From an uncultured Eubacteriales bacterium (GTDB lineage: Bacteria > Bacillota > Clostridia > Christensenellales > UBA1242), in contig CARNVA010000004.1 of NCBI GenBank assembly GCA_949031345.1, forward strand, positions 468 to 64,467: a DNA stretch of 64,000 nt, read 5' to 3'. Of this stretch, positions 4,364-61,726 are shown piece by piece. The notes under the pieces are model-generated. The model saw nothing but the letters and a program-made list of their open reading frames with translations. It did no database searches and had not been told where the DNA came from. The position numbers and the translations under genes were made by a program. Each line of letters begins with the position of its first letter. Positions within the stretch are counted from its first letter, which is position 1.

Positions 4364-7300
4364 TTACAATGCTGTATACCCAAGCTCTGCAAGTTTTTCC
4401 ATTGTTAAGTTTCCTCCGCTGCTGCTTATCCATGAAAACCCTTTTGGCAATGGTTGATCGTTTACTGCCAGTGTCCAGTTTGCAAATGGGTTTGTTTCGC
4501 TGCTATGGGTCACATACTTCTTTACTATGTTGTCGTTATCCTTGTTCTGTATATACAAGCTGCTCTTGATTGTTCCGCTTCCCTTTGTAATGGCATAGTT
4601 TGTTGTAGAGTTTGCAAAGCAGTCAATTACGCTTCCGCCGTTTAAGTTGCCTGTAAGAAGGCCTGTATTACTTCCTCCTGTTACGCTTCCAATAAAACCA
4701 CATGATTGCAAGGTTATTCCGCTTGTTGTTGTTTGGCCGAGTATTCCTCCACAGTCTGCATTTGATGCCGACGCTGTTACGCTGCCCTTCATATAGCAGT
4801 TTTCAAGGCGTGTACCTGTTCCGCCATTACGCCCAAGGATTCCTCCTACATAGTCATTTCCGTTTACGCTTCCATAGTTATAGCTTGACAAAATTGATGT
4901 GCTTACTCCATAGCCTATCATTCCTACATTGTTGTGTCCTGTCACTGTTGCTCCGCTTCGGCAGTTTTCTATGCTTCCGTTGTTGAGGTTGCCGACTATC
5001 GAGCCAACATTATCATAGCCTCGGATAGTACCCGATATGATATTCACATTCTTTATCGTTGCATTTCTTGTATAACCAAACAGACCTACATTTGAATAGA
5101 GATAATAGCCAGATTCACTCTCAACTCTCGCACTTGAGGTGGTAAGATTTGTTATCAAATAACCATTGCCATCATAATTGCCTTGAAAAGCTGTCTTCTC
5201 ACTGCCTATCGGCAACCACAATCTTCCACTTAAATCTATACTTTCAGTCTGCTTAAAATACTTTCCTGCAAAAGTTATACCATTTGCCACCGCTTTTGAA
5301 ATGTACGCAAGGTCTTCCTTGCATGAAATAAAATATGGATCGTTTATTGTTCCACTTCCAGTTAGACCGCTTGAAGCATAAGTGTTCCATGTTTCATCCC
5401 ACTGCGCAAATAAGGTAATATTATTTGTAAAATTTGAAACATATTGTCTTTCATAAAATTTTGTACCACTGCCATTAGCACTTGTGTTCCAACCTTTAAA
5501 TAAATAATCATTTCTAGAAAACGCATTGCTTGTCAACTGTTTAGCAGCACTGTTGTAAGTCAATTGCATACTTTCCATGTTGCCAACTCCGCCATTTGAA
5601 TTAAAGCAAATGTTTATTGTTTTAGGCGTCCAGTGTGCATATAATGTATGATTACCCACAATCGTCACCGTTGCATTGCTTTCGATCTTACTTCCACCAC
5701 TTAAATCTGTATACCAGCCATCAAAGTCATAGCCTATTCTGTCATTAACAAGAGGCAGATGTCCATAACTCGAATTAAATTTTACATTTTTTTCGACATT
5801 ATTTCCATTCATCACCCAATCTTTCAATTCGTAAATGTAAAAACTTCCTCCGTTTGCATTGGCCGTGACTTTATAAGTGTTTGCCTCCCACACTGCATAC
5901 AAATCAACGGTAGAAGCACCAGCAGTCGTCAATTTGCTTACACTTGCTCCATCAGAATAGATTACTCCACCGTTTGCGCTTGTAGCCCATCCTTTAAATG
6001 TATATCCCGGCCGGACAAAAGTATTCCTTTGTAAAGCATGAGGTGTGCCATATGTAAACCCGCCTTGTGATGTTGTTGTATACGGAGAAAAGTTGGAATT
6101 AAACCGGACTGAATATGATATCCCTGTCCAGTGCGCGTAAATAGTGTGATCGCATGCCGTTGTCATTTTTGTAGAAGAGCTTACCACTGTTCCACCAATT
6201 GCTTCTGTATACCATCCTGTAAAATTATAGCCCGTTCTTGTAGGTGTTGGAAGTGTGTCATAAGTTGAATCATAATTGATACTTTTAGTTGCTATAGACC
6301 CACTGCCAGTCCATCCAGTTGTATATGGAATGCTTCCGTATTCGCCATTTACATCTGCAGTCACCGTGTATGAATTTGATACCCAATGTGCATATATTGT
6401 GCGGTTGCCTAAAGTTGTCACTTTTGTAGAAGATGAAACATATGTCCCGCCACTTGCTGAGGTATACCAACCTAAAAAACTATCTCCCGTTCTTGTAGGT
6501 GTTGGAAGGTGGCCATATTTGCTGTCATAATAAACCGTCTTTTTTGAAGTTAAAACACTTCCGCCATTGGGATCAAAGAGCAAATCATATTCATTTGCAG
6601 GACAATACGCATAAAAATAAGGGTTTATAGTGTAGGCTACACAATCGGCATTATTCTGATATGTCGAAAGTTTTACATTGTTTGAGTCTCTCCATTCTTG
6701 AAAATGATAACCCGTCTTAACAGAAGTTGCAGGCAAACGGTATTTCTTACCATATTCTGTTGTCACCGAACCTATATAACTGGTTGTAGTACCGACATCA
6801 GGAGAGTAATATTTGTGATAGTGCTTGGCATCTACAGATTTTGCTGACACATAAAAATCCACCTTGAATGAAACATTTCCCCAGATTCCAACAGCAAGTT
6901 GAGCATTTTTGCTACTATCGTAGTTAGCATCTGCATAACTATCAAAATTGGTTACTTTCTTCTCAAACTTCTCAAAATCACCATCCGCATATATATTTGC
7001 ATAAACATCATAATAATATGACCTAAACCCTTCAAGGTATAAGTTTACAGCACAGTCTTTATTACTGATGGCTGAGCCTGAAGTTGAGCTTGAGTTTGAT
7101 GTTGATGAAGAGTTTATGAAGGCGTGCCCCCAGTCAAAGTCTGGGTCTGGGCCATCTATGCCCTGTTTAACATTATAAGAAGCACCGGGCCCGTAAATTG
7201 AGTATGTATGTCCGTCAGAGGTGACTGATAAAGTATTCTTAGTTGCATCCAAATTGCTTTTCAACGCGCCACCACTTGCATAAAGATATATGGTCGTTCT

Positions 7301-7426
7301 TATCGTCTTTGCGTCAGTCTGTATATTTTTAAGCTGTGGCGTAAAAAGAATAAGCAATCCACATGCCAAACAAATCAAACATATAAATGAAAGTGAAAAA
7401 TATTTAAAATTTCTTTTCATTTTCAT
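4364..7426 (-). CDS. Large surface protein A: Listeria-Bacteroides (Flg_new) repeats plus a C-terminal GLUG-repeat module
   Basis: 1020-aa ORF with an N-terminal hydrophobic signal/anchor (FSLSFICLICLACGLLILF). About 5 repeats carry the G(Y/F)xFxGW(Y/N)T...(T/L)(I/L)YA(H/V)W signature. The C-terminal ~330 aa has GLUG-like units (NVGLFGY, VGSIVGN, VGGILGR, CGGILGQ). It is paralogous to 37270-40659, 49856-53407 and 58570-61593. Confidence 0.8.
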   Translation of the reverse strand: MKMKRNFKYFSLSFICLICLACGLLILFTPQLKNIQTDAKTIRTTIYLYASGGALKSNLDATKNTLSVTSDGHTYSIYGPGASYNVKQGIDGPDPDFDWGHAFINSSSTSNSSSTSGSAISNKDCAVNLYLEGFRSYYYDVYANIYADGDFEKFEKKVTNFDSYADANYDSSKNAQLAVGIWGNVSFKVDFYVSAKSVDAKHYHKYYSPDVGTTTSYIGSVTTEYGKKYRLPATSVKTGYHFQEWRDSNNVKLSTYQNNADCVAYTINPYFYAYCPANEYDLLFDPNGGSVLTSKKTVYYDSKYGHLPTPTRTGDSFLGWYTSASGGTYVSSSTKVTTLGNRTIYAHWVSNSYTVTADVNGEYGSIPYTTGWTGSGSIATKSINYDSTYDTLPTPTRTGYNFTGWYTEAIGGTVVSSSTKMTTACDHTIYAHWTGISYSVRFNSNFSPYTTTSQGGFTYGTPHALQRNTFVRPGYTFKGWATSANGGVIYSDGASVSKLTTAGASTVDLYAVWEANTYKVTANANGGSFYIYELKDWVMNGNNVEKNVKFNSSYGHLPLVNDRIGYDFDGWYTDLSGGSKIESNATVTIVGNHTLYAHWTPKTINICFNSNGGVGNMESMQLTYNSAAKQLTSNAFSRNDYLFKGWNTSANGSGTKFYERQYVSNFTNNITLFAQWDETWNTYASSGLTGSGTINDPYFISCKEDLAYISKAVANGITFAGKYFKQTESIDLSGRLWLPIGSEKTAFQGNYDGNGYLITNLTTSSARVESESGYYLYSNVGLFGYTRNATIKNVNIISGTIRGYDNVGSIVGNLNNGSIENCRSGATVTGHNNVGMIGYGVSTSILSSYNYGSVNGNDYVGGILGRNGGTGTRLENCYMKGSVTASASNADCGGILGQTTTSGITLQSCGFIGSVTGGSNTGLLTGNLNGGSVIDCFANSTTNYAITKGSGTIKSSLYIQNKDNDNIVKKYVTHSSETNPFANWTLAVNDQPLPKGFSWISSSGGNLTMEKLAELGYTAL

Positions 7427-7521
7427 AGGCTCCTATATTTAGTTTAACAAATTTTTTATAATATAAACTATATAAAGCTTTTCAATAACATTTATTATAA
7501 AATAATAAATAATATAATTTA

Positions 7522-7549
7522 ATTTTACCCCCCCCCGATTTATTGTCAA
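7522..7549 (-). promoter_or_regulatory. Sigma-A-type promoter with a G9 tract in the spacer (surface gene A)
   Basis: Minus strand 7549->7522 reads TTGACA ATAAATC GGGGGGGGG TAAAAT. The plus-strand C9 is at 7528-7536 and the spacer is 16 nt. The promoter lies ~95 nt upstream of the ATG at 7426. Confidence 0.7.
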
Positions 7550-7649
7550 ATGTTTTACCGTATTTTTTTTTACTTTAGTAATTTTTCTTAAAAATCGTTT
7601 TCTAAAAATCAACATCAACATAATAATTTAAATATGATTTTAGACAATA

Positions 7650-7685
7650 AAAAACCCTTCTTAATAATAAGAAGAGCCTTTTTAT
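7650..7685 (-). terminator. Rho-independent terminator of the 7688-7921 gene
   Basis: The minus strand reads GGCTCTTCTTATTATTAAGAAGGGTTTTTT: a stem-loop followed by a T run. Confidence 0.6.
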
Positions 7686-7687
7686 AA

Positions 7688-7921
7688 TTAGTCAATCCAC
7701 CAAACATGACCAATGATGAGTATACAAAGCATATCAATCAACCATAAGAATGGAATGCCAATGATGATGAAAATGACAGCAATAAGCACACCAACCCAGT
7801 TTTGTTTATCTACAGATCTGATTATTCTATAAACAACCCAAACGATGTCAAGAAATGGAAGTGCAAGCAACACCTTTACAAGCAAAGGCAATTTTTCCAT
7901 TGCAACGATAAAGCTTTTCAT
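7688..7921 (-). CDS. Small integral membrane protein (hypothetical)
   Basis: 77-aa ORF with two clear hydrophobic segments (LLVKVLLALPFLDIVWVVY; VGVLIAVIFIIIGIPFLWLIDMLCILII). Confidence 0.5.
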   Translation of the reverse strand: MKSFIVAMEKLPLLVKVLLALPFLDIVWVVYRIIRSVDKQNWVGVLIAVIFIIIGIPFLWLIDMLCILIIGHVWWID

Positions 7922-8020
7922 GATTTTCCTCCTTTATATTCTATATATATTTTACTACACCTTTTCTTTTTGTCAATCATAAAGTTATCAAAAATTTAAA
8001 ACTTTTCATCTCAAATATTG

Positions 8021-8506
8021 TCACCTTACAATTATGCCTTCAATATGAATTGGCATAACTTCAAAAAAAGAATAATTTTGAAGAGGTTTGTCTTTGGCAT
8101 CATTTGAATGGGCACACACTATGATTTGTCTGCCTATAATATTTGTCACAATCACACTATGGTTAAAATGCGTGGGGTTTTGGCGCAGCTGCAATATATC
8201 ACCAATCATAACTTGATTCAATTGAACAACCCTTCCATAAGGCCCAACACTTTTATCCTTTCTCAACAGAAATTTCATTAAAGCATCAACTGATGTCCAG
8301 CTTGGCGAACGCGACGCTTGAGAGTTATAAAACCAGCCATTATGCCGGTCATAATTCATCACGCCGCCACCTGAGAGAAGACATTGCGAAACAAAGTTTG
8401 TACAATCTCCGCCAATGCCTCCAAAATGATAATATTCTGGATTGGCAGAAAGCGCCCATCTTCTAGCATAAGCCGCCGCTTTAGCCCTATCGTAATTTTT
8501 AACCAT
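8021..8506 (-). CDS. Putative amidase-domain protein (Amidase_6-like)
   Basis: 161-aa ORF. YDRAKAAAYARRWALSANPEYY...GGDCTNFVSQCLLSGG matches the remembered signature of the putative amidase domain family. Confidence 0.5.
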   Translation of the reverse strand: MVKNYDRAKAAAYARRWALSANPEYYHFGGIGGDCTNFVSQCLLSGGGVMNYDRHNGWFYNSQASRSPSWTSVDALMKFLLRKDKSVGPYGRVVQLNQVMIGDILQLRQNPTHFNHSVIVTNIIGRQIIVCAHSNDAKDKPLQNYSFFEVMPIHIEGIIVR

Positions 8507-8583
8507 AGTTTGTTATATGATAATTTTTCAGTATTTGACAATAGATTATTTAAAAAAGCCAGGTTTCAAACCTGACCATTTAA

Positions 8584-9387: not shown

Positions 9388-9442
9388 ATATCCCCCCTAT
9401 ATAAACGAAAAACACCTTTGCTATAAAGGCGCTTTTTCTTAA

Positions 9443-9610: not shown

Positions 9611-9681
9611 AATATCCTCCATATCTTGTCTATATGATAACATACTTTTTGGCAAATGTAAATACCTTTTTTGAAAATATT

Positions 9682-36761: not shown

Positions 36762-37028
36762 TTATGAGCAAGCAGAAACTATCAACCCAATAAACATCAA
36801 AAATACAACAAGCCCAATCATAACGCCAAGCCCGATAAGCCAGCCTTTAATAAAAGTCTTTCGTTCATACTCATATTGTGGCAATGGATATAAAAGCAGG
36901 CCGACAATAAGCCCGATTATTCCAAGCAGAAATAAAAGTATCCCAATTCCAAGTTTTGATTGTCTTTTGAAAGAAAGACCTTTAAAATCTTCCCCATTTT
37001 GCCCATTCTTATCTTCAAAATGTTCCAA
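36762..37028 (-). CDS. Small membrane protein (paralog of 42600-42895)
   Basis: The in-frame TTG at 37026-37028 is preceded by AAGGTGGGAGAAT. The product is (M)EHFEDKNGQNGEDFKGLSFKRQSKLGIGILLFLLGIIGLIVGLLLYP...ERKTFIKGWL... The tracked ORF start (TTG at 37076) is actually the -35 hexamer. Confidence 0.55.
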   Translation of the reverse strand: MEHFEDKNGQNGEDFKGLSFKRQSKLGIGILLFLLGIIGLIVGLLLYPLPQYEYERKTFIKGWLIGLGVMIGLVVFLMFIGLIVSACS

Positions 37029-37049: not shown

Positions 37050-37076
37050 ATTATACCCCCCCCCGAAATATGTCAA
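37050..37076 (-). promoter_or_regulatory. Sigma-A-type promoter with a G9 tract in the spacer (small membrane-protein gene)
   Basis: Minus strand 37076->37050 reads TTGACA TATTTC GGGGGGGGG TATAAT. The plus-strand C9 is at 37056-37064 and the spacer is 15 nt. Confidence 0.65.
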
Positions 37077-37269: not shown

Positions 37270-40200
37270 TTAATATTGCTCAAATCCCCATTTTACAAGG
37301 TCTTCTGTTGTTATGCCTTTATTCCCTCTTGCAAGCCACGAAAGTCCATCTGGCAGCGGTTGCCCAGTATCAGTAATAATCCAAGCCGAAAAGTCACTTC
37401 CTATAAAATGCTTTTGTATGCCCTCGATTTCATAAATTGAGTTGTTTACCACAACATTTTCTATATCCATCGCACTCCAAACAGAAGATTTTGCAAAGCA
37501 GTTGTTGACAGAGCTTTTGATATCACTGTTTACTTGACCGACAATAAGCCCTAAAAAGTCGCCGCCAACAATATCACCCATATAGCCACAAGCTGCAATT
37601 CTTATTACGCTTGCGTTTGCACAACCCAAGATGCCGCCGATGTACATTTCACCAGAAATATTACTTTTTGAAAAACTATTTTCAATTGCGATGAAGTTTT
37701 CAGTTGTAATGGTGCCATTGTAAAAGCCAATTATTCCACCCAAATTATATTCGCCAGTAATATTGCCATAGTTGAAACACCCAACAACTTTAACATCCTC
37801 GCCTCTGCCTATCATTCCACAAGAGTCATAACCAACGATTTTTACTCCACTTCGGCAATTTTCAATCAAGCCTGTGTACGCAACTCCGACTAACGAGCCC
37901 ACATTTTCATAACCATAAACATTTCCAGAAACAATATTTATATTTTTAAGTATTGCACTGTTGCAAAAGCCAAACAAACCGACATTTGAATAAATTTGAT
38001 TTCCATAAGCATCAACCACATCAATAGTTTTTAAATTGCTTATTAAAAAACCTTGCCCGTCATAAACGCCCTTAAAAGCACGCTGACTATTATCTGTCCC
38101 AATTGGAAGCCAAATATTGTCTAAAAGGTCAATTGGTCTTGTTTGCTTAAAGTATTTATCACCGAAAGTTTCACCATGTTTAACTCGATATGATAAATAT
38201 GCCAAATCTTCAGCACTTGAAATTAAATATGGTGAGCTTTCATCGCCATTACCTTGAAAAGCCTCTGTTCTATTTAAAATCGGCAAATGCCAAGTTGTAT
38301 CCCATTGTGCATAAAGTGTCAAATTTGCAGTAAGATTGCTTATTGCACTGTTTTCAAGATAAATCTCACCACCATATTGCGAAGTTGACCAATGTTTAAA
38401 AGTATATCCCTCTTTAACAAAAGCATTATCTGCAAGCCTCACAAAGCCTGCATCATAGGTCACCGATTGAGAAGGCATGCTTCCACTGCCACCATTGCCA
38501 TAAAAAATTATTGAATATGTTTTTGGCCTCCAATGAGCGTAGAGAATGCTGTCTCCTGCGATATTGTATTTTCCTGTTGTATCAACTTTTGTTCCGCCAG
38601 TCGCACTTGTCCACCAACCCTCAAAGATATATTCTCCATCTTTTGTTGGCGTTGGAATATCACCATAGACTTCATCATAAGTGACCTCTTTGGTAATTTC
38701 TTCTGCAACTTCGTTTGACGAGCTTATCAAATCAAAAGCGATTTCATAATCTATATTATTACCAATAAACTTAGCACTGATTGGTGCAAAGAAATAGAAA
38801 TAAAAGACATGGCTTCCAGCACTGATATCTGAAAATATAACACGAGTGCTTCCGCTTAAATTTTTCGTGGTCCAATATGGCTTATCGTATGAAAAGCTGT
38901 CTAATTGAGTAACTCCGAAGTCCACAGCGTAAAGGTCTTTACCCGTTTTTTGTTTAATATCAAAGCTTATAGACAAACTTATCCTAGCATCTTTGATGGC
39001 AACAAAACTTACCGAATATAAAGCGTCCCCTGCCCAAAATCCACCTTTTATCTTTCCGCCAGTTTCAGTCTTTGCTATTCCAGGGCCATAAGTCAAATTA
39101 CTTATTATTTCGTTGCTTTTGAAATCAAAGTATCCGCTATTTGCGTTTAGCGTCAATTCATAATTATTTGGTTTCCAAATTGCCTTGAAAGTTTTCGTCC
39201 CATTGGCTCCTAAATAAGGGACTTTGTCTATTCTGCAAGTTCCATCAGCGTTTGCATTATAAAAATAGTTTGTATAACCAGGTTGTGTGCATTGCCAACC
39301 AACAAGACTATAGCCTCTTTTTACAGGCACAGGGAAGCTGTATGGTCTCCTTTCTATGACGCCACTTTGACTTGAAGATGAGCTATCATTATATATGCCA
39401 CCATTATAATCAAGACAGAATGTATATTCTTGGAAAAGTGTTGAGATGGCTTTTGAAAGATTGAAGTGAAGCGCTGGTCGAACAGCAAGTGACTGATTTA
39501 CATATTCGCCGTCCCCTTGTGCTCCATTTGGAAAAAGAAGCATGCCATACAAAGAGCTGTCAAGAAATGCCGACCTGGTCCACGAGTATGTATAAACTCC
39601 ACTATTGTTTCTAGTGCCAACTGTTCCTAACAAGTCAGTTGTGCTGCCGTTGAAATTTTTTCGTTGGTTATTTGACAAACCCCACATACCAGGATGAGAG
39701 CTGCTATCACCAGTTTCTGAAATGCTAGGCAGCCATATAAAATCATTGCTCCAGGCACTATTTAATGATTTATTTGCATAATTGTAATAGCTTCTCTTGG
39801 AAGAATTATAATAAAAACGATAAGACGTTCCATTATAAGAGCCCGAATTTGGAATGCTTGATGACCAATTTTCATTCGAAGCAGAATATGCTACACCTAT
39901 ATAAGTCCTAGTATTTTGACCATACTCCTGCCATTGAACATTTGCCGGTTTAACTAAGTATTCGGTAACATTTCCGCTCACACTCGACATAGTAAACTTT
40001 GCAAAAGGGCTGTCAGTACTTTGAGAGCCTGGATTCAAAGCATTGCTTCGTGCAGCATAAGACCCACCATTATTTAAAGTAGCCGACCTTATATAACTTA
40101 GCCCATACATGTTTGATGGATTATGACTACTTGGTGCATCCTCTCTCCAATTTGCAGACCAATCTGAATATAACCCGCCATTCAACAGCCCATGATAATT

Positions 40201-40659
40201 ACCTAAATTTTTGGTTGTAGAGCCCCAAGCTTCCTGCTTGCAGTTTGTAAGCCATAAAGTAATAATGGTATTGCCCGAGGTGTCTTTTGAAAGATAAACC
40301 ACCTGCCAATCAAGTCCACCAAAACGAACAACAACATCTTGCGAAGAGGTCTTATTGTATGTCTTTGACCTTATAATTGAAGCTTTTGTTTTGGATGAGG
40401 CCATACCATCAATAGTTGCCTTATTTGAAATAGTGGTGTCGGCGCTTCCAGAAATATATTTAAGAAGGGTATTTAAATTTGTTTCTGAAAAACTGCTTCC
40501 ATTATAAAGCTCATCAACCTTAACATAGGATGTTGTATCAGTTGAGGTAATAGCCTCCGTTTGCTTGATAATTCCACTATATTGAAGCCCCATAAGAAAA
40601 CTGCATAAAGCAAAAAGGAGACAAGACATTGTTACTGAAATCCTCCTCAATAATCTCAT
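37270..40659 (-). CDS. Large surface protein B: distinct N-terminal region, Flg_new repeats and a GLUG-repeat C-terminal module
   Basis: 1129-aa ORF with a GGAGGTGAGATATG RBS and a signal/anchor. The N-terminal ~400 aa (VVVRFGGLDWQVVYLSKD...IWLPSISETG...YSWTRSA) is possibly DUF6273-like. Flg_new units are present (GYSLVGWQC, FEGWWTSATGGT...LYAHW, GYTFKHWST...LYAQW). The conserved C-terminal module is SPYLISSAEDLAYLSYRV...GLFGF...LGGIIGF...IGGILGC...QPLPDGLSW. Confidence 0.8.
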   Translation of the reverse strand: MRLLRRISVTMSCLLFALCSFLMGLQYSGIIKQTEAITSTDTTSYVKVDELYNGSSFSETNLNTLLKYISGSADTTISNKATIDGMASSKTKASIIRSKTYNKTSSQDVVVRFGGLDWQVVYLSKDTSGNTIITLWLTNCKQEAWGSTTKNLGNYHGLLNGGLYSDWSANWREDAPSSHNPSNMYGLSYIRSATLNNGGSYAARSNALNPGSQSTDSPFAKFTMSSVSGNVTEYLVKPANVQWQEYGQNTRTYIGVAYSASNENWSSSIPNSGSYNGTSYRFYYNSSKRSYYNYANKSLNSAWSNDFIWLPSISETGDSSSHPGMWGLSNNQRKNFNGSTTDLLGTVGTRNNSGVYTYSWTRSAFLDSSLYGMLLFPNGAQGDGEYVNQSLAVRPALHFNLSKAISTLFQEYTFCLDYNGGIYNDSSSSSQSGVIERRPYSFPVPVKRGYSLVGWQCTQPGYTNYFYNANADGTCRIDKVPYLGANGTKTFKAIWKPNNYELTLNANSGYFDFKSNEIISNLTYGPGIAKTETGGKIKGGFWAGDALYSVSFVAIKDARISLSISFDIKQKTGKDLYAVDFGVTQLDSFSYDKPYWTTKNLSGSTRVIFSDISAGSHVFYFYFFAPISAKFIGNNIDYEIAFDLISSSNEVAEEITKEVTYDEVYGDIPTPTKDGEYIFEGWWTSATGGTKVDTTGKYNIAGDSILYAHWRPKTYSIIFYGNGGSGSMPSQSVTYDAGFVRLADNAFVKEGYTFKHWSTSQYGGEIYLENSAISNLTANLTLYAQWDTTWHLPILNRTEAFQGNGDESSPYLISSAEDLAYLSYRVKHGETFGDKYFKQTRPIDLLDNIWLPIGTDNSQRAFKGVYDGQGFLISNLKTIDVVDAYGNQIYSNVGLFGFCNSAILKNINIVSGNVYGYENVGSLVGVAYTGLIENCRSGVKIVGYDSCGMIGRGEDVKVVGCFNYGNITGEYNLGGIIGFYNGTITTENFIAIENSFSKSNISGEMYIGGILGCANASVIRIAACGYMGDIVGGDFLGLIVGQVNSDIKSSVNNCFAKSSVWSAMDIENVVVNNSIYEIEGIQKHFIGSDFSAWIITDTGQPLPDGLSWLARGNKGITTEDLVKWGFEQY

Positions 40660-40810: not shown

Positions 40811-40839
40811 ATTTTACCCCCCCCGGTAAATTTTGTCAA
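40811..40839 (-). promoter_or_regulatory. Sigma-A-type promoter with a G8 tract in the spacer (surface gene B)
   Basis: Minus strand 40839->40811 reads TTGACA AAATTTACC GGGGGGGG TAAAAT. The plus-strand C8 is at 40817-40824 and the spacer is 17 nt. Confidence 0.7.
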
Positions 40840-49695: not shown

Positions 49696-49730
49696 TTTTT
49701 TACTCCACAGCCATTTTATCACAACCATAT

Positions 49731-49766
49731 TAAAAAAGCAACCAACATAACGCGGTTGCTTTTCTT
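49731..49766 (-). terminator. Rho-independent terminator after surface gene C
   Basis: The minus strand reads AAAGCAACC-GCGTTATGTT-GGTTGCTTTTTT. Confidence 0.65.
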
Positions 49767-49769
49767 GAC

Positions 49770-49855
49770 AATATTTTTACTATTCTTAAATTCTGCTTGC
49801 CACAATATTGACGCTTAAGGCTGTTGTCATTTCTGCGATAAACTAAGCTTACATC
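49770..49855 (-). pseudogene. Relic fragment homologous to an internal segment of priA (zinc-finger region)
   Basis: 49786-49855 aligns at roughly 75-80% identity with priA 48305-48372. The relic translates DVSLVYRRNDNSLKRQYCGKQ versus the priA sequence DVSLVYHREDNRLKCHYCGKQ. Confidence 0.65.
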
Positions 49856-52800
49856 TTACATTTGATTAAATCCAAGCTCAGTCAATTTTTCAATGGTAAG
49901 TTTTTCTCCGCCTTCGCCAAGCCAAGCTAAGCCTTTTGGAAGAGGTTGACCATTCTCTAAAATAGACCAATTTTCAAAAGGATTTTCCAAAGTGCTTATT
50001 TTGTAATATTTTTTCTCTGAGGATCCCCCTTTATTTTCTATAATTAAAGTGCTTTTTATAGAAAATGAAGATCGAGAAAATGGCAGAAAAGCTGAAGCAA
50101 AAGCAAAGCAATCCACAACTTCACCATCCATTCTTCCACAGAATTGACCTGCCCCGCTTCCTCCTTGCACTGTTCCCAGCACACCACAACTTCTAATAAT
50201 ATTGCCAGTTGTATTGTCAGCATTACCAAGAATGCCTCCACTATTAGAATAATTTGCGGCAGCTTTAATAAACGCATCAACAAAACAATTTTCAATTACA
50301 GATTTCTCTTTTGAAATTGCGCCAGCTATTCCCCCAACACTATTCAAACCTGTCAAATTTCCATAATTTAAACAAGAAGATACTGTAAAGCCTGAAACTG
50401 CGCCAAACATTCCACAATATGCATATCCATTTACATTCACACTGCTTTTGCAATTTATCGCAGCTCCTGTATCAGAATATCCTGTTATCGCCCCTGAATA
50501 ATACTGCCCAAAGACATTTCCTTTTACAAGGTTGATATTTTTTAACACTGCACCTTTGCTGAAACCAAAAAGACCAACATAGTTGTAAAGATAGATTTCA
50601 CCCAAAGCCATATAATAAGTCTGAACAAGTCTCATATTTAAAATCGGAAAGCCCTGCCCATCATAAATTCCTTGAAAGCTGTTTCCAGTATTCGTCGCGC
50701 TGACAGTCGAGCCGCCAATTGGTCGCCATAAATTGTATCCAAGCTCAATAGGTGCGGTCTGCTTAAAATATTTGCCAGCAAAAGTCACTCCTTCTTCAAC
50801 TCTCTTTGAAATATAAGCCAAATCCTCAGCACTTGCAATCAAGTATGGATTTTCTGCGCTGCCTTGATTTTCAGTCTGGCTTGCTTGAAGTGTATTTGAC
50901 GCAAAAATGTTCCAAGTCTCCTGCCACTCTGCCCTCAATTCAAACAATCGGTCACTGCTGTCAACAACGCTGCTTGGCAGTGTGCTTATTGTCGCTCCGT
51001 CATAATAAGCTTTGCCATTGTTTGTCCAATTTCTAAACAAATATCCTGTTTTTAAATATGAAATGGTTGGCAAAGTCAAACTTGTGCCATAGGTGTAAAC
51101 CCTGTCTTGCATCTGTCCTGAGGTATGCCCATTGCCATTAAATCTGATGGTATATTGTTTTGGCGTCCACTTAGCATACAAGGTAAATGATGACAAATAG
51201 CTTGTATATGGGCTGCTTGAAATGCTATTCAAAACCTTTCTTTCTGAAAGCGGCGCCCCTTCATTATCTTGCAAACTTTCACCATTTTCAAATTCGACTC
51301 CGCCTCCTAAAGACTTTGCCCAGCCTACAAAATCATAACCCGTGCGAGTAAACTCATTGTTTTTAATCTCTTGGCCGTTGCCATAAACGCAACTTTGACT
51401 GGTCATGCTTCCATTTCCGCCATTTGCATTAAAATTTATTGTATAAGGCCTTCCACTCCAAACTGCATACAAATCGAATACTTCATTCTCATTCGACCTC
51501 AAGTTTGAAACGCTTTGCCCTGGATTATAGACCTTGGTTTGTCCAGCACTGCTTGTATCCCATCCAAGCAAGGTAAACCCATGCCGGACAAACTCATTCG
51601 CTTTAAGGTTTTGCGACTGATTGTATGTAAATTGCTGTGATATGGATTTTTTCCCGTCACCCGTGAGAATGTCTCCACCAGCACTGTTTTTTCCGCCATG
51701 AAAGGTTACACTATATTTAATAGGCGTCCAATGCGCATAAATTGTGTGATTATTAGCTATATTCAAAATCGTAGAAGTAGAAATCTTTGTTCCGCCCGTC
51801 TGCGCTGTAAACCATCCGTCAAATTTATATCCTGTTCTGCTTACAGAAGGAAGATATTGATAGGTTTCTCCAAAGATTACATTTCTTATGCAACCTTCAC
51901 CAGAAATTACCCAGCCGGTAGTGGAAGTAAAACTTCCGCCATTTGCATCCGCTGTAGCCAGATATGTCATTGGTGCCCATTGCGCATAAAGCGTCACATT
52001 GCCAATTATATCATACTTTTTTATTGCTTGACCGTTCTCATTATAATATTGGGTCCCGCCCCTTCCAGAACTAGTATAATAACCTTTGAATCTATATCCA
52101 GTTTTTACAGGAATTTTCACAGTGTTCATTTCCTTGCCAAGCCAAACATTGCAAGAACTATCACTTGAGTTTTGAAAACTGCCACCATCCGCATTAAAAC
52201 TTGCAGTATATTTTATTTCATCAAGCTCACCATTTGTATAGTAATCTCTATATCTTCCAGAAACATAAGATACATCAGAATAAAGCGTGCCTCTGCCACC
52301 CTTACTTCCTGTTGCGCCACCAATTCCACCGGTGGCTTGACTTAATACATCATTGCAATAAGTATCATAGTAGGCAGATTCTCCACTAGAACCACCAATT
52401 AACCCGGTACCACCGGAGCCACCAGCTCCACCGCTATATTTATATCCCTTTCTAGAAGTATAGGTGCCACCAGCACCTCCGCCGCCTCCGCCGCCTCCGG
52501 CACCTGCGCCACCACCAATTGCATCAGCATTAACAGAACCTGCGCCACCACCGCCGCCTGCTCCGCCTCCGCCAGAGGCGTAATAATTTTTCCAACCAGA
52601 ACCAGCATCATTTGCTGTTCCTCCAGCGCTGCCACCACTGCCACCTTTAAAATTTTGTTCTCTTCCACCAGCAGTTGCAATTACTGTAACTCCACCAAAG
52701 ACATACAGGTCACCCATTGCAGAGCCGTCACCGCCTTTATATCCATTTTTTCCGAAACCGCCCTGCGCGTCATATTGATCACCATATTCACATTCTTTTG

Positions 52801-53407
52801 TCGCACATACACCACCAGAGCCACCATAACCGCCAGAGCCGCCATAGCCACCAATTCCTGCGCCAGCACCTGAGCCTCCTCTGCCTCCGTCGCCACCAGT
52901 ACCACCTCTGTACTTGTTGTCACTAATTGAAAGATAACCATTATATCCACTATCTCCATTACCGCCGCTTCCCGCATTTCCACCAGTGGCTTTTAAAGAT
53001 CCTTCACCTACGACTATCAGTCTCTTTCCATAATGCAATGAAATTCCTGCCTCGCCAACACTAGCGGTTACGGTCACTGTAATATTTTTTGGTATATATA
53101 AAACAACAGTGCCGCTCACACTTGCTCCATAAGACATAGTCACATTACTAATTGCTTTATAGACAGTATCTGAATAAAAGTATTGCTTATTACTAAAAGT
53201 GCCATTCATTGTAATACACTTTGTAAAACCACTACTCGCATTAGCGACTTTTTCTTCTTCCAAATTTTTATACGAGGTCACAACTGAAAAATAAAATATA
53301 AAAAACGCAAGGCAAATAAAAAGACAAGAAAGATAAATCTTTCTCATTTCAGAGTTATTCTTTTTATGACTTATTTCATTCTTTAAACTTTTATTAAACT
53401 TTGCCAA
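49856..53407 (-). CDS. Large surface protein C: Gly-rich N-terminal region, Flg_new repeats and a GLUG-repeat C-terminal module
   Basis: 1183-aa ORF with a TTG start after GGAGG and a TM anchor (IYLSCLFICLAFFIFYFSVV). A ~230-aa glycine-rich region is followed by Flg_new units (GYRFKGYYTS, GYKFDGWFTAQTGGT...IYAHW, GFTLLGWDT, GYDFVGWAK, GYLFRNWT). The conserved C-terminal module is NPYLIASAEDLAYISKRV...GLFGF...VGGIAGA...SGGILGN...QPLPKGLAW. Confidence 0.8.
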   Translation of the reverse strand: MAKFNKSLKNEISHKKNNSEMRKIYLSCLFICLAFFIFYFSVVTSYKNLEEEKVANASSGFTKCITMNGTFSNKQYFYSDTVYKAISNVTMSYGASVSGTVVLYIPKNITVTVTASVGEAGISLHYGKRLIVVGEGSLKATGGNAGSGGNGDSGYNGYLSISDNKYRGGTGGDGGRGGSGAGAGIGGYGGSGGYGGSGGVCATKECEYGDQYDAQGGFGKNGYKGGDGSAMGDLYVFGGVTVIATAGGREQNFKGGSGGSAGGTANDAGSGWKNYYASGGGGAGGGGGAGSVNADAIGGGAGAGGGGGGGGAGGTYTSRKGYKYSGGAGGSGGTGLIGGSSGESAYYDTYCNDVLSQATGGIGGATGSKGGRGTLYSDVSYVSGRYRDYYTNGELDEIKYTASFNADGGSFQNSSDSSCNVWLGKEMNTVKIPVKTGYRFKGYYTSSGRGGTQYYNENGQAIKKYDIIGNVTLYAQWAPMTYLATADANGGSFTSTTGWVISGEGCIRNVIFGETYQYLPSVSRTGYKFDGWFTAQTGGTKISTSTILNIANNHTIYAHWTPIKYSVTFHGGKNSAGGDILTGDGKKSISQQFTYNQSQNLKANEFVRHGFTLLGWDTSSAGQTKVYNPGQSVSNLRSNENEVFDLYAVWSGRPYTINFNANGGNGSMTSQSCVYGNGQEIKNNEFTRTGYDFVGWAKSLGGGVEFENGESLQDNEGAPLSERKVLNSISSSPYTSYLSSFTLYAKWTPKQYTIRFNGNGHTSGQMQDRVYTYGTSLTLPTISYLKTGYLFRNWTNNGKAYYDGATISTLPSSVVDSSDRLFELRAEWQETWNIFASNTLQASQTENQGSAENPYLIASAEDLAYISKRVEEGVTFAGKYFKQTAPIELGYNLWRPIGGSTVSATNTGNSFQGIYDGQGFPILNMRLVQTYYMALGEIYLYNYVGLFGFSKGAVLKNINLVKGNVFGQYYSGAITGYSDTGAAINCKSSVNVNGYAYCGMFGAVSGFTVSSCLNYGNLTGLNSVGGIAGAISKEKSVIENCFVDAFIKAAANYSNSGGILGNADNTTGNIIRSCGVLGTVQGGSGAGQFCGRMDGEVVDCFAFASAFLPFSRSSFSIKSTLIIENKGGSSEKKYYKISTLENPFENWSILENGQPLPKGLAWLGEGGEKLTIEKLTELGFNQM
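52300..52990 (-). repeat. Low-complexity GGN-rich coding region (glycine-rich domain of protein C)
   Basis: The plus strand is dominated by imperfect ccacc/gccgcc/accagc units and encodes GGTGGDGGRGGSGAGAGIGGYGGSGGYGGSGG...GGGGAGGGGGAGS...GGGAGAGGGGGGGGAGG. GC content here is locally much higher than in the rest of the window. Confidence 0.8.
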
Positions 53408-53506: not shown

Positions 53507-53534
53507 ATTTTACCCCCCCCCGACACATTGTCAA
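53507..53534 (-). promoter_or_regulatory. Sigma-A-type promoter with a G9 tract in the spacer (surface gene C)
   Basis: Minus strand 53534->53507 reads TTGACA ATGTGTC GGGGGGGGG TAAAAT. The plus-strand C9 is at 53513-53521 and the spacer is 16 nt. Confidence 0.7.
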
Positions 53535-56396: not shown

Positions 56397-56432
56397 AAAA
56401 AAAAATAGGCGAAAAATCACCTATTTTATATT
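56397..56432 (-). terminator. Rho-independent terminator after the DUF3794 gene
   Basis: The minus strand reads AATAGGTG-ATTTTT-CGCCTATTTTTTTTT. Confidence 0.7.
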
Positions 56433-56511
56433 TTTTAAATGAAATTTAGCTTTTAAGCCATATTTTTAAACACTATTTCGGCCATATCATAAAATTATGA
56501 AATTTCTGCTT

Positions 56512-58029: not shown

Positions 58030-58283
58030 TTTACCCTCCAAACATTTTACATGGTATCTTACGAGCCCCAACTGACAAATATTACAAAAATGTTTAAAAT
58101 CTTTATTTTTTGTCAACAATCCTTTGAAATAAACTTGCATTTTTTTAAAAAAAAGGTCAAATTTTGAAGATTTTTTGCAAAATAAGCCCAGTATTTTCAA
58201 AAAAAATATTAAATTGAAAATATTTCAACTAAAAAATCTTTAAGCAAGCATTTATTTAAATATATTAAAATTGGGAGGAAAAT

Positions 58284-58520
58284 ATGAGAAAAGCTGGAAT
58301 GGGAATAAACGATATAAAAGCAAAAATACTCACTCTTAAAGGACGAGAAGTTGAGATGAATGTCAATCGCGGCAGAAAGAAATATGACACATTAAACGGG
58401 ACAATTAAGGATTGCTATCCAAGCGTGTTTACCGTTGCCTTAACTGAAAATTCGTCACTGCAAACCTTTTCGTACTATGATGTGCTATGCGGCAATGTCG
58501 TTTTTATAGAAGAGGAATAA
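58284..58520 (+). CDS. veg: Veg family protein
   Basis: 78-aa ORF. IKAKILTLKGREVEMNVNRGRKKYDTLNGTIKDCYPSVFTV...FSYYDVLCGNV is collinear with Veg. Confidence 0.8.
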   Translation: MRKAGMGINDIKAKILTLKGREVEMNVNRGRKKYDTLNGTIKDCYPSVFTVALTENSSLQTFSYYDVLCGNVVFIEEE

Positions 58521-58539
58521 ACTTTTTTATATTGCAAAC

Positions 58540-58568
58540 AAAAAAAAGAGGTCTTATCCTCTTTTTTT
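58540..58568. terminator. Bidirectional terminator between veg and surface gene D
   Basis: AAAAAAAGAGG-TCTTAT-CCTCTTTTTTT. Confidence 0.7.
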
Positions 58569-58569
58569 G

Positions 58570-61500
58570 TTATGCTTTTGAAAAGCCACTTTCACTTAAA
58601 TCAAATTCAACTTCAGTGCTGCCACGCCATATAAGTGCTCTTGGTAAAGGCTTTCCGTCTTCTAGCATTATCCACTGTGAAAAATCTTCTCCAACATATT
58701 TTTTAACGCCATTAAACTCAAATAAGCAATTCAATACCGTCGCTTCCCCATAATATTGCAAAACGAAGCCATCGGCATTATTCAACAATTTTGAAAAGCA
58801 GTTTTCTATCGTTCCACTTAAAACAGAATAGCCAACAAACAAGCCTCGTTTGCCACTTGCTACTTCCATATTTTCCTCAAAACAACAAGCTGAAAGTATA
58901 AAGTTTTGAGCAGCATAGCCTATCAGCCCACCACAATAGTTTGAAGCAATCAAGCTCATTTTTGACATGCAGTTTTTCATTTCAAAATTTATTCCCGAAA
59001 CTTCACCAATCAGCCCTCCAACCTTATCACCTGTCGCTGAAATGCTTCCATAACAATAGCAGTTTTCAACAGAGACATTATCTTTTACTCGGCCAATAAC
59101 ACCTCCTACTTTTGCCGAAGCTTTAATTTCTACAGACGCGGAAGAGCCCACTATAACTGCATTTTCTGCTTTGCCAACTATCGCTGCCACCTCTTCATTT
59201 CCAGAGACTTTGCCAAATAATCTGACATTTTTAATAATGACTGGATTATCTATTTTCTCACCTTCAACACGACCGAATAGTCCTTGACAATTATCATAAT
59301 AGCCATTGATAACATTTATTCCTTCTATCTTAAAACCCTGTCCATCAAAACAGCCTTTAAAAGCAAAATCCTCACTGCCAATTGGCTTCCATATATTATC
59401 ACTTAAATCAATGTTTGCTGTTTGTTTAACTTGAAATCTGGAATTATTGATTTCACATTCACTTGCAAGCCAAGCAAGCTCTTGGGCATTTGAAATGAGA
59501 TAAATTCCACCTTCATTTTTAGGTTGTTTAATATTTGATAAATGGGCCCAACTGTCTTGCCATTCTGCAGTTAAAGTCACATCTTCTGCCTTGATTATCG
59601 TATTCTCACCTGCAATAAGCCCATTCACATCAAACCAGCCCAGAAAAATCTGTCCCCTCTTGGTCGGTTTTGGCAAATATCCAAAAGCAGAATTATATTC
59701 AATATCTTTAACAGCCATTCCATTCTCAATTTTCCATCCATTCATGTTGATGGGATAACTTCCACCTTTAATGTCAAGTTTCAGTTTATAATGATTTATT
59801 TCCCAAATAGCATGGAGATTTATGATTTCGCCCTCTTTTGAGGCCAAGTTTTTCACAATCTGCTCATCATAATATAGAGGCTCTTTCGCACTTGAGTCAG
59901 TATTCCAGCCCACAAATGAATAGCCCTCTTTTGTAAAGCTGTTTGAAGAAAGAGCATTGCCTTGCTCAGAAGCGCTTTTGTAAATAAAGTTTTGATTTGG
60001 CATGGAGCCTATTCCACTATTGCCATTAAAACAAACGCTATAACTATTTGCCCGCCACTGAGCAAAGAAGGTTGCAATGACTTCATTATTGCCAAGATTT
60101 GGCATAGTTAAATATAAACTTTGGTCGGAAGAATTGGTCTGATAAATTACATCGTCAAAACTGCATCGCCAGCCCGTCAAAGTGTAACCTTCCTTCTTAG
60201 GAATTGGGAAATAATACCCCTGCCCAAACTTTAGTTTGGTTGAAGAAGAGGAAGAATTATCAGAATTGAGTCCACCGTTGAAATCAAATACAACATTATA
60301 ATCATTTTCGAGCCACTGTGCATAAATCGAGTGTGCCGATCCCTTATTCATAACAGTGCTTGAAGTCACCTCTGTGCCTCCACTTGAAGCAAAATACCAG
60401 CCTTTTAAATGACAACCATCCCTTATAACCTGCGGAAAATTTCCATAATTGGTCAAATATGTAATATCTTTCTTCGCATTGTCGCCATTCTTAGTCCAAC
60501 CATTTAAGTTAGAGCCCAGCTTGCCTCCATTGACATTTGCAGTGACCGCATAACTACCTTTTTCCCATTGAGCATAAATGTAAGCAAGCGTTTCAAACCC
60601 AAAAGTTGTTGACACAGTAACCTCTGTACCTCCACTCGCTTCAGTAAACCAACCTTTCAAGACATAACCAGTCCTTGACACAATTGGAAAGCTTCCTAAA
60701 GGATTGCCATAGGCTATATTTTTTGTAATAGAACTTGCAATTTGATTCCAACCATTTGCAGAAACAAGAGTGCCTCCATTTGTATAAGCACTTACCGAAC
60801 AAGTTTGAGCTCTCCACTGTGCATAAAGAGTCATAGACGGCGGTGCAACTTTTAATGCAGCACCACTGCTGCTGAAATAATCATCGCCTCTGCCATCAGC
60901 TCGAGAGTTATAGCCCAAAAATGTATGTCCAGTTTTAGTAGGACAGGTTATTGATGACATGCTCATCCCATAACTTACTCGTTTGCTTGATGTTCCACCC
61001 GACCCGCCTTGCTTATCAAAGGTAAGCGTCACACCACTTGCCACCGAATAAAACAAAGGTGTTATAATTATTTCTTCGTCAAAAGAGGCCGAATTCGAAT
61101 AATTGTTTACATCTGTTTGCGACATTCTCCAATATGTTTCTGAGCTTATTTTAGTCCAACCATAATCGCTATTGTTTTCATACCAGCCTGCAAATTTAAC
61201 TACACTTGAAGATGAAAGATAAAAACTTAAGGCTATTGGATAATAATCTGTGGTAGAATTAAGAGACAGATTATGAGGCAAACTATAAACTATTTCATCA
61301 TAAGAATCGTCTGAATAGAGATACATGCTTGGTCGATTGATATACACTTTTTCTTGGTCGCTTGAAGATATATCTTTTACACTTATTCTATTTGACGATG
61401 GGGCACTTGTTGAAGCATATAGTCTTGGCCCTGCCACTTTTAAAGTGTAATTTGCAGCACTGACAGAATTTTCGCTTATTTTAGCAATCTTGTCATAAAA

Positions 61501-61593
61501 AAGCTTTCCCATTCCAGATATGGTGAATATCCCCATGAGGCACAAAAATATTGCAATGAAAGATAATACTATAAAGTTTAAATTCTTTTTCAT
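58570..61593 (-). CDS. Large surface protein D: Flg_new repeats and a divergent GLUG-repeat C-terminal module
   Basis: 1007-aa ORF with a signal/anchor (FIVLSFIAIFLCLMGIF). Flg_new units are present (GHTFLGYNS...LYAQW, GYVLKGWFTEASGGT...IYAQW, GCHLKGWYFASSGGT, GYTLTGWRC, GYSFVGWNT, GQIFLGWFD). The C-terminal module is IYLISNAQELAWLA...GLFGR...VGGVIGR...VGGLIGE...CGGLIGY...KPLPRALIW. Confidence 0.8.
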   Translation of the reverse strand: MKKNLNFIVLSFIAIFLCLMGIFTISGMGKLFYDKIAKISENSVSAANYTLKVAGPRLYASTSAPSSNRISVKDISSSDQEKVYINRPSMYLYSDDSYDEIVYSLPHNLSLNSTTDYYPIALSFYLSSSSVVKFAGWYENNSDYGWTKISSETYWRMSQTDVNNYSNSASFDEEIIITPLFYSVASGVTLTFDKQGGSGGTSSKRVSYGMSMSSITCPTKTGHTFLGYNSRADGRGDDYFSSSGAALKVAPPSMTLYAQWRAQTCSVSAYTNGGTLVSANGWNQIASSITKNIAYGNPLGSFPIVSRTGYVLKGWFTEASGGTEVTVSTTFGFETLAYIYAQWEKGSYAVTANVNGGKLGSNLNGWTKNGDNAKKDITYLTNYGNFPQVIRDGCHLKGWYFASSGGTEVTSSTVMNKGSAHSIYAQWLENDYNVVFDFNGGLNSDNSSSSSTKLKFGQGYYFPIPKKEGYTLTGWRCSFDDVIYQTNSSDQSLYLTMPNLGNNEVIATFFAQWRANSYSVCFNGNSGIGSMPNQNFIYKSASEQGNALSSNSFTKEGYSFVGWNTDSSAKEPLYYDEQIVKNLASKEGEIINLHAIWEINHYKLKLDIKGGSYPINMNGWKIENGMAVKDIEYNSAFGYLPKPTKRGQIFLGWFDVNGLIAGENTIIKAEDVTLTAEWQDSWAHLSNIKQPKNEGGIYLISNAQELAWLASECEINNSRFQVKQTANIDLSDNIWKPIGSEDFAFKGCFDGQGFKIEGINVINGYYDNCQGLFGRVEGEKIDNPVIIKNVRLFGKVSGNEEVAAIVGKAENAVIVGSSASVEIKASAKVGGVIGRVKDNVSVENCYCYGSISATGDKVGGLIGEVSGINFEMKNCMSKMSLIASNYCGGLIGYAAQNFILSACCFEENMEVASGKRGLFVGYSVLSGTIENCFSKLLNNADGFVLQYYGEATVLNCLFEFNGVKKYVGEDFSQWIMLEDGKPLPRALIWRGSTEVEFDLSESGFSKA

Positions 61594-61697
61594 AACCCCT
61601 CTAAACCTTACAAACTTTTAAAGAATAATTAAACTTTTAATCTTAAAATCTATATGTTTTTTAATTTATCCAATTTATCAAATTAGTTTATACTTTA

Positions 61698-61726
61698 ATT
61701 TTATAATTAAACAAGCGTTTCGTCAA
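61698..61726 (-). promoter_or_regulatory. Homologous promoter of surface gene D without a homopolymer tract
   Basis: Minus strand 61726->61698 reads TTGACG AAACGCTTGTTTAATTA TAAAAT, with a 17-nt spacer. It has the same TAAAATTAAA -10 context as genes A and C. Confidence 0.55.

Follow-up and report, generated by a model that had tools for sequence, protein, structure and literature searches.

Four Flg_new and GLUG paralogs, three of them with poly-G promoter tracts, in an uncultured gut Clostridia bacterium

Few surface protein families of gut anaerobes are as expanded, or as poorly understood, as those with Flg_new and GLUG domains. Which end of such a protein faces outward? And do uncultured gut Clostridia vary their surface by homopolymer phase variation, which is documented mainly in pathogens? 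A 64,000-nucleotide stretch of DNA from an uncultured Eubacteriales bacterium (assembly GCA_949031345.1, contig CARNVA010000004.1, positions 468 to 64,467; hereafter the window) bears on both questions. It contains a compact set of four paralogous genes, named A, B, C, and D here, three of which have switchable-looking G tracts in their promoters and one of which does not. The count of four refers to copies within the window. A reading made beforehand from the letters of the window (the sequence-only reading) had taken them for a family of giant surface proteins. On balance we lean towards the view that the four are adhesin-like surface proteins held at the N-terminus, with the GLUG module as a passenger, and that A, B, and C are switched or tuned by their G tracts.

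Domain architecture and the C-terminal module

As shown in Table 1, the four open reading frames (ORFs) all lie on the minus strand, where the sequence-only reading had placed them. C starts with TTG preceded by GGAGG, giving 1183 amino acids (aa); the ATG at 53347, used by the gene caller of one assembly, gives 1163 aa. The four proteins are homologous (pairwise BLASTP E-values of 1e-41 to 1e-143, protein identity 27-38%). The alignments between them start at residues ~280-410, and the N-terminal 190-400 residues are unrelated, so the N-terminal regions do differ as had been said. Flg_new (PF09479) is found in all four with 90-207 bits against a Pfam cutoff of 27 (E 1e-25 to 3e-62), and the NCBIfam model TIGR02543 with 42-102 bits against a cutoff of 20.95. 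A hidden Markov model (HMM) built from the proteins themselves counts six Flg_new repeats in A, three and one split copy in B, five in C, and six in D, in agreement with the variable numbers claimed before. In B the array is interrupted by an insert of ~140 residues (residues ~500-637, window 38770-39160), which has no Pfam match. Beyond Flg_new, Flg_new_2, and Glug, there is no Pfam match at E<=0.01 in the four proteins. The paralogy and the modular plan of the family (variable N-terminal region, Flg_new repeats, GLUG-type module) are thus seen directly, and from this plan we infer proteins of a surface type.

The C-terminal modules (328-354 aa) can be aligned over their whole length; 59 columns are invariant, and protein identity to the module of A is 32-43%. 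Gly, Trp, Pro, and Phe make up most of the invariant residues, and these are structural positions. Together with the strong Flg_new matches, this alignment recovers the modules that the four proteins were said to share. The description of a conserved GLUG module of ~330 aa holds for its length, homology, and predicted fold, but the Pfam Glug cutoff (20.5 bits) is reached only by D (24.8 bits); A scores 17.5, B scores 17.1, and C has no match. The GLUG label therefore rests on homologs and predicted fold. The start and end motifs quoted for the module by the sequence-only reading fit B and approximately A and C, but they fit D poorly.

A search with the module of A returned 610 homologs from Bacteroidota (often with a type IX secretion system (T9SS) C-terminal sorting domain), Clostridia, Chlorobi, and others. 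PF07581 is found on most of the 120 homologs that were listed. The homologs share with the window modules the head GSGTxxDPYlI...YFKQTxDIDL...WxPIG...FxGxyDGnG and rungs of the form (N)C...G.v.G...vGG(i/l)vG. A closing motif, W(D/N)F..vW......(G)YPxLxW, is found by a simple pattern in 47 of the 120 listed homologs. It lies at the C-terminal end in some and internally in others, and it occurs twice in tandem-module proteins. In the window modules FxxW........QPLPxGLxW has the same form and position. By motif inspection it is therefore read as the usual GLUG closing element, with QPLP replacing (G)YPxL.

AlphaFold2, run with an alignment of 50 sequences, models the module of A as a beta-solenoid (scores in Table 1); its last ~55 residues (module 290-343) are of low confidence. 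In a fold comparison the model is closest to PDB 3n6z, which is BACOVA_03286, a GLUG protein of Bacteroides ovatus (E 1.4e-8, TM 0.59/0.60). Next come the N-terminal beta-helices of IgA1 proteases from S. pneumoniae and G. haemolysans (6xjb, 7uvl, and 7uvk; probability 1.0), and one of these, 7uvl, is also the sole PDB sequence match of the module (E 4.6e-9). In an exhaustive profile search with the module, 91,286 protein clusters reach E<=1e-3, and 13,841 of them also reach E<=1e-30. Leading the list are proteins of 2,000-7,800 aa with up to 31 matching stretches. Beside such relatives, "giant" is a generous label for the four paralogs. Most matches span positions ~16-265 of 336 and stop short of the tail. 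Judged by its homologs and its modelled fold, the module is a widespread GLUG beta-helix, among the commonest passenger domains of large bacterial surface proteins, and not a novel domain.

The position of the GLUG module varies among these relatives: it may be internal, N-terminal, or repeated in tandem (up to ~31), and in some a T9SS C-terminal domain or a transmembrane helix at the C-terminus comes after it. One Clostridia protein (P0034) has a classical signal peptide, the GLUG module, and a C-terminal transmembrane helix. In related proteins of metagenome-assembled genomes (MAGs), a Lys-rich tail and a long hydrophobic segment are followed directly by GLUG, by GLUG in tandem, or by GLUG with further domains after it. 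Another relative, L045, consists only of an N-terminal hydrophobic segment and two GLUG modules. The function of GLUG is unknown; in gut microbes, proteins with Flg_new and GLUG domains are viewed as adhesin-like (PMC9723798). No functional study of GLUG domains was returned by a literature search.

The N-terminal regions are less easily placed in known families. A Pfam search of the isolated regions of A-D at E<=10 gives only an extra weak Flg_new copy in A. Homologs of the B region (26-410) pass the cutoff of DUF6273 (PF19789), with B itself below Pfam significance. The AlphaFold2 model of this region (pLDDT 88.5, pTM 0.90) has a sole notable fold match, the T. ramosa IgA peptidase 9qa6 (probability 0.96, TM 0.31, 13% identity). 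The N-terminal domain of that protease is an enlarged C-type-lectin-like domain resembling the C-terminal domain of Legionella Lcl (PMC12237041). This partial resemblance of a predicted model weakly suggests that the N-terminal domain of B binds a ligand and is possibly lectin-like. Homologs of the Gly-rich N-terminal part of C score mainly through the first Flg_new repeat or through low complexity. The family Gly_rich_2 was considered for this domain and rejected, because the single carrier match (P0348) aligns through Flg_new only. A PDB sequence search with the N-terminal regions of B and C gave only low-complexity noise.

Poly-G tracts in the promoters

The best sigma-70-type matches upstream of A, B, and C (11/12 consensus positions) are promoters in which a G tract fills the 3' part of the spacer between -35 and -10 (Table 1). 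The sequence-only reading had seen poly-G promoter tracts in three members, and these are the three: G9 in A, G8 in B, and G9 in C. The tract of A is also G9 in another assembly (L056). The promoter of D, which has no such tract, is identical in the four other assemblies covering the stretch. For B, C, and D, the promoter is closely preceded by terminator-like hairpins, whereas the stretch upstream of the A promoter gave none. Each of the four genes would be transcribed from a promoter of its own.

Runs of seven or more G are enriched in the window, with 11 overlapping matches against 2.3 expected; 0/100 shuffles reached 11. All are on the minus strand and fall at four sites, each of which is a promoter spacer. 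The fourth site lies between B and the PPDK gene at 37050-37076 (minus strand), where TTGACA-TATTTC-G9-TATAAT forms a promoter with a 15-nucleotide (nt) spacer. It precedes an ORF at 36762-37028 (minus strand) of ~81-88 aa with apparently two transmembrane helices, which is uncalled in the public assembly. This promoter and its tract are kept in the MAG of a sister lineage (L004, 3633-3641).

The lengths of two of the tracts differ between assemblies. The window shares 13.6 kb and 15.4 kb with MAG GCA_948709035.1, and over both segments there are two single-nucleotide polymorphisms and two indels in total. Both indels are the gain of one G in that MAG, from G8 to G9 in the tract of B and from G9 to G10 in the tract of C.

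Table 1. Positions in the window of the four paralogs, their C-terminal modules, and their promoters
Feature	Position	Strand	Description
Paralog A	4364..7426	-	1020 aa; hydrophobic segment 10-28; unique region to ~202; six Flg_new repeats 203-675; GLUG module 678-1020
Paralog B	37270..40659	-	1129 aa; hydrophobic segment ~7-25; DUF6273-related, possibly lectin-like N-terminal domain 26-410; GLUG module 788-1129
Flg_new repeats of B	residues 412-492, 638-709, 715-785	-	from family HMM; unassigned insert of ~140 aa at ~500-637
Paralog C	49856..53407	-	1183 aa; Lys-rich tail and hydrophobic segment 24-43; Gly-rich domain to ~399; five Flg_new repeats 400-816; GLUG module 830-1183
Paralog D	58570..61593	-	1007 aa; most divergent; hydrophobic segment 7-27; unique region to 187; six Flg_new repeats 188-677; GLUG module 680-1007
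Module of A	4367..5395	-	343 aa; AlphaFold2 pLDDT 86, pTM 0.88
Module of B	37273..38298	-	342 aa
Module of C	49859..50920	-	354 aa
Module of D	58573..59556	-	328 aa; sole member above Pfam Glug cutoff
Promoter of A	7522..7549	-	TTGACA, 16-nt spacer, TAAAAT; G9 at 7528-7536
Promoter of B	40811..40839	-	TTGACA, 17-nt spacer, TAAAAT; G8 at 40817-40824
Promoter of C	53507..53534	-	TTGACA, 16-nt spacer, TAAAAT; G9 at 53513-53521
Promoter of D	61698..61726	-	TTGACG, 17-nt spacer, TAAAAT; no homopolymer tract

Switching by a poly-G tract in the promoter spacer has been shown experimentally for tp0126 and the tpr genes of T. pallidum and for porA of N. meningitidis (PMC7864442). By analogy, A, B, and C are probably phase-variable through their tracts. 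Slipped-strand changes in the G8-G10 tract would switch or tune the three genes stochastically and independently, each one-base change shifting the spacer between 16, 17, and 18 nt. D would be constitutive, with its spacer fixed at 17 nt. Switching of A, B, and C could then produce up to eight surface-protein combinations in a clonal population.

The same -35/poly-G/-10 design is found before the C ortholog of the sister lineage (L003, tract 91-99). It is also found before GLUG-protein genes of more distant Clostridia MAGs, as TTGACG-C-G10-ATTTGG-TAAAAT in L006 (tract 1333-1342) and as TTGACA-C-G9-ATTTGC-TATACT in L025 (tract 2668-2676). L021 (800-809) has a similar arrangement, but its spacer of 20 nt is outside the usual range. 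From these comparisons the design appears to be lineage-wide and not peculiar to this genome. An alignment of five upstream regions of the poly-G type shows no conservation beyond the core of -35, tract, and -10. No description of a promoter poly-G switch in Clostridia was found in a limited literature search.

Divergence of the paralogs, exchange between lineages, and genomic setting

The sequence-only reading had credited the paralogs with long near-identical stretches and had proposed them as substrates for gene conversion. Neither claim survives the comparison of their DNA. The modules, aligned by codon, are 48-54% identical in nucleotides and 35-44% at third positions. Exact DNA words common to two paralogs reach 13-15 nt at the longest. 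BLASTN between the paralogs gives ~70-75% identity over ~100 nt at most, and no match for B-D and C-D. A GENECONV-like permutation test on the codon-aligned modules gave p = 0.13-0.99 across the pairs, none of the runs of shared sites being significant. One could still imagine that the paralogs diversify one another by gene conversion, as in cassette-type antigenic variation, given that the four copies are co-oriented within 57 kb and that alleles of C and A are mosaic between lineages. Against this, besides the low identity and the missing tracts, the 5' segment that diverges in the C ortholog has its homolog in the Gly-rich domain of C and not in A, B, or D. Cassette-type diversification is extremely improbable, and among the four copies of the window conversion is ruled out by BLASTN, the longest shared words, and the permutation test. 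The paralogs are old duplicates and not substrates for homologous recombination with one another.

Variation of a different kind is seen between lineages. Orthologs of B, C, and D exist at the same positions in the MAG of the sister lineage (CASLXJ01, ~95% nucleotide identity), so the dispersal of the family is ancient. B and D are uniformly ~90-95% identical in protein to their sister orthologs. In contrast, C compared with L003 (129-1592) is 26-64% identical over the first ~485 residues and 82-100% identical after them. The DNA similarity begins abruptly at window ~51955, leaving a hypervariable 5' segment of ~1.45 kb (~51955-53407). In the sister C this segment is replaced by one that encodes a homologous but very different Gly-rich domain. 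The sister contig ends just upstream of the C promoter. Another example is found in A. Another metagenome contains the fragment P0001, whose identity to A is ~45% across the last Flg_new repeat and ~100 initial residues of the module, and 96-100% from there to the end. The alignments indicate that allelic diversity arises from the exchange of divergent 5' segments between lineages, with the C-terminal side conserved. The D ortholog in CASLXJ01 (L013 ~2190; D nt 1310, window ~60284) is found as two ORFs, split by one extra T in a T-run. It may be a pseudogene or an assembly error (coverage ~5x).

The host is a spore-forming gut Clostridia bacterium. The window is identical to contigs of several MAGs or metagenome assemblies, including GCA_949036025.1, GCA_948845435.1, and GCA_948665775.1. 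The nearest species-level relatives in GTDB come from animal guts and are labelled uncultured bacterium, Eubacteriales, Christensenella sp., or Clostridia. Upstream of A are the genes of SpoIIE, DnaX, YbaB, RecR, and ArgS and an Amidase_6 gene; downstream are two HTH genes and then a DpnII-type restriction-modification (R-M) cluster. B is flanked by a gene for an FAD-dependent oxidoreductase and by that of PPDK, C by SpoIIR/SleB/YpeB and PriA-Def-Fmt, and D by a TraG/VirD4-like gene and by Veg and a SipL-like gene. The claim that each paralog is inserted singly among core or sporulation genes is thus largely true, but A adjoins the R-M cluster and D adjoins the TraG/VirD4-like gene.

The R-M cluster (210-2817, minus strand), directly downstream of A, encodes a DpnII endonuclease, an Mrr_cat protein, and a Dam-like D12 methyltransferase. 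Its N6_N4 methyltransferase lies just outside the window, and the small HTH regulator genes at 2810-3667 flank it near A. The TraG/VirD4-like gene (61820-63826, minus strand) lies directly upstream of D, beside MarR and DegV genes. It encodes a type IV coupling protein of 668 aa and, lying among core genes, may be what is left of a conjugative element. The 128 nt from the stop codon of C to the start of priA (49728-49856) gave no terminator-like hairpin, so transcription from the variable C promoter might read into priA-def-fmt. An Rfam scan of the window for leader RNAs gave 0 matches.

Anchoring and comparison with known systems

The sequence-only reading had found no LPXTG, SLH, or choline-binding anchor, and here regular expressions and Pfam agree with it. 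No LPXTG-like motif (LPx[TSA][GNA]), NPxTN, usable N-terminal lipobox, or HExxH was found by regular expression in the four proteins, and Pfam found no SLH, CWB1/choline-binding, CWB2, GW/SH3_8, or LysM domain in them. The T9SS C-terminal sorting domain (PF18962), carried by many module homologs, was likewise not found by Pfam in the four. The proteins are thus not members of the LPXTG, SLH/CWB/GW/LysM, or T9SS-cargo classes. What each of them has is exactly one strongly hydrophobic segment, which is N-terminal and 19-21 residues long. In C it is preceded by a Lys-rich tail of 23 residues, and this tail is even longer in the C ortholog.

Could the conserved C-terminal tail be a new attachment or sorting element, as had been suggested? 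The last ~20 residues (GGxxLTxExLxxLGF) are restricted to a small clade, i.e., A-D, their orthologs, L005, and P0015. They have no sorting-signal features: a hydrophobic helix and a basic or charged tail were looked for and not found. An HMM of the last 48 residues, searched over every ORF of 60 aa or more from the window and from 56 further loci, matches only GLUG-bearing ORFs. As the tail never occurs apart from GLUG, it is unlike a sorting tag shared by unrelated cargo, and its role as an independent sorting tag was rejected. The module to which it is attached being a common GLUG domain, the suggestion is not borne out.

Four observations together favour anchoring at the N-terminus: the length of the hydrophobic segments, the basic tail of C, the similar starts of related proteins, and the use of GLUG as cargo elsewhere. 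The N-terminal helix is most likely an uncleaved signal anchor that tethers the protein to the membrane. A Lys/Arg-rich N-terminal tail with the hydrophobic helix of 19-21 residues would export the protein and retain it as a membrane anchor. Next outward would come the paralog-specific domain, of the DUF6273 type and C-type-lectin-like in B and Gly-rich in C, and then a stalk of three to six Flg_new (internalin B-repeat) domains. Outermost would be the small GLUG-type beta-helix, as a passenger or binding domain.

Several points weigh against this arrangement or against the switching of A, B, and C. Signal-peptidase sites judged by eye are plausible in C (between VTS and Y), D (between GMG and K), and B (between TEA and I). 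An N-terminal anchor would put the fast-diverging domains nearest the membrane, which is the opposite of the usual variation at an exposed tip and fits attachment by the C-terminus better. We know of no ligand for any GLUG domain. The tract lengths are those of MAG consensus sequences, in which homopolymer assembly errors could in principle occur. Moreover, a promoter can function with a spacer of 16, 17, or 18 nt, so the tract may modulate expression rather than switch it.

In a different arrangement, which is a weaker form of the attachment idea of the sequence-only reading, a signal peptide is cleaved, the C-terminal GLUG module and its 20-residue tail bind a wall polymer non-covalently, and the Flg_new stalk displays the N-terminal heads outward. 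Such a layout parallels InlB with its GW modules and the CWB2 family of C. difficile. The order of head, B-repeats, and C-terminal module is internalin-like; the NCBIfam internalin models match through the B-repeat region only. The C-terminal part is conserved among the paralogs, and it is also conserved between lineages, where C and L003 as well as A and P0001 diverge N-terminally. No other anchor was found by the searches above, the N-terminal domain of B resembles a lectin-type head, and beta-helices often bind polysaccharides, with pectate lyases and phage tailspikes among the weaker fold matches of the module. However, GLUG is cargo elsewhere, being followed by a T9SS domain or a C-terminal transmembrane helix, repeated in arrays of up to 31, or used as the gate of IgA1 protease. 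L045, with its hydrophobic segment and two GLUG modules, would be all anchor. Hydrophobic segments of 19-21 residues and the 23-residue Lys-rich tail of C are typical of signal anchors. The C-terminal tail has no sorting-signal features, accompanies GLUG in every ORF in which it was found, and is a low-confidence part of the model. Wall binding by the C-terminus is an unlikely explanation, but one to be taken seriously. A bolder version is doubtful enough that we offer it as speculation: the GLUG beta-helix with its ~20-residue extension would be an unrecognised non-covalent envelope attachment module of Christensenellales-like Clostridia, displaying exchangeable lectin-like or Gly-rich heads whose repertoire is shuffled per cell by the poly-G switches. 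If this were true, the family would correspond in function to the anchoring families GW or CWB2.

The weak fold matches also allow a reading in which the proteins are released or enzymatic, the beta-helix acting on glycans, by degrading or modifying them, or serving as an accessory domain in a secreted factor, and the Flg_new repeats being spacers. The module has some similarity to pectin methylesterases, pectate lyases, polygalacturonases, alginate epimerases, and phage tailspikes (E 2e-3 to 0.3, TM 0.2-0.38). TM values this low, however, indicate a generic solenoid, and the specific matches are to the non-catalytic GLUG protein 3n6z and to the N-terminal domain of IgA1 protease. No catalytic Pfam or NCBIfam family and no HExxH is found in the four proteins, and the invariant residues of the module are mostly structural. 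A released or enzymatic role is improbable. We therefore keep to membrane-held, adhesin-like proteins as our working interpretation.

Every component of this system is of a known kind: the Flg_new repeats, the GLUG beta-helix, the DUF6273-like domain, and the probable homopolymer promoter switch. What may be new, modestly, is the clade-specific 20-residue tail, the recurrence of the promoter poly-G design in gut Clostridia MAGs, and the replacement of N-terminal segments between lineages.

Among the closest known proteins are other GLUG proteins (PF07581), such as BACOVA_03286 (3n6z). These have the same fold, head, and rungs, and they close with W...(Y/Q)PxL/PxxxW as the window modules do. 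In the window proteins, by contrast, one module alone follows the Flg_new repeats at the very C-terminal end, its closing motif has QPLP where (G)YPxL is usual, and it carries ~20 clade-specific residues more. Also close are the M26 IgA1 metalloproteases (6xjb, 7uvl, and 7uvk), whose N-terminal beta-helix is a sequence relative of the window module and a confident fold match. They are large surface proteins held at the N-terminus, as is proposed for the window proteins. The window proteins, however, lack the M26 catalytic domain, HExxH, G5 domains, and LPXTG. With no M26 Pfam match and no HExxH in any of the four, membership in this protease family was rejected. As a mobile element, the beta-helix of IgA1 protease gates the active site (PMC7695701). 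Such a role has no counterpart in the window proteins, where there is no active site. The T. ramosa IgA protease (9qa6) resembles the N-terminal domain of B by a partial fold match, and DUF6273 proteins are linked to this domain through its homologs; B has no M64 catalytic domain.

Listeria internalins (InlB, InlA, and InlH) have the stalk of Flg_new (Listeria-Bacteroides) repeats in common with the window proteins, which lack the leucine-rich repeats (LRR), the inter-repeat region, and the GW or LPXTG anchor of internalins. With the NCBIfam models internalin_A and internalin_H the scores are 35-77 bits, whereas the cutoffs are 1600 and 1050, and the matches are confined to the B-repeat region. 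With no LRR found by Pfam and scores so far below the cutoffs, internalin membership was rejected. Multi-copy families of membrane-bound adhesin-like proteins with Flg_new and/or GLUG exist in Methanomassiliicoccales, Methanimicrococcus blatticola, and host-associated bacteria, and are read as adaptations for gut attachment (PMC9723798). Proteins of the Methanomassiliicoccales type differ from the window proteins in being archaeal and, in some cases, having PGF-CTERM anchors, and no switching by promoter tracts is described for them in PMC9723798.

The promoter tracts resemble known switches of surface proteins in pathogens. The vlp genes of Mycoplasma hyorhinis have poly-A promoter tracts that work in the same way as the poly-G tracts in promoter spacers. 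In contrast to M. hyorhinis, T. pallidum, and N. meningitidis, the host here is a spore-forming gut Clostridia commensal, and the variation is known from length polymorphism between assemblies alone. The window shares with all of them a homopolymer positioned between -35 and -10 that determines the spacer length, with one tract per switched gene in a family of paralogous surface proteins.

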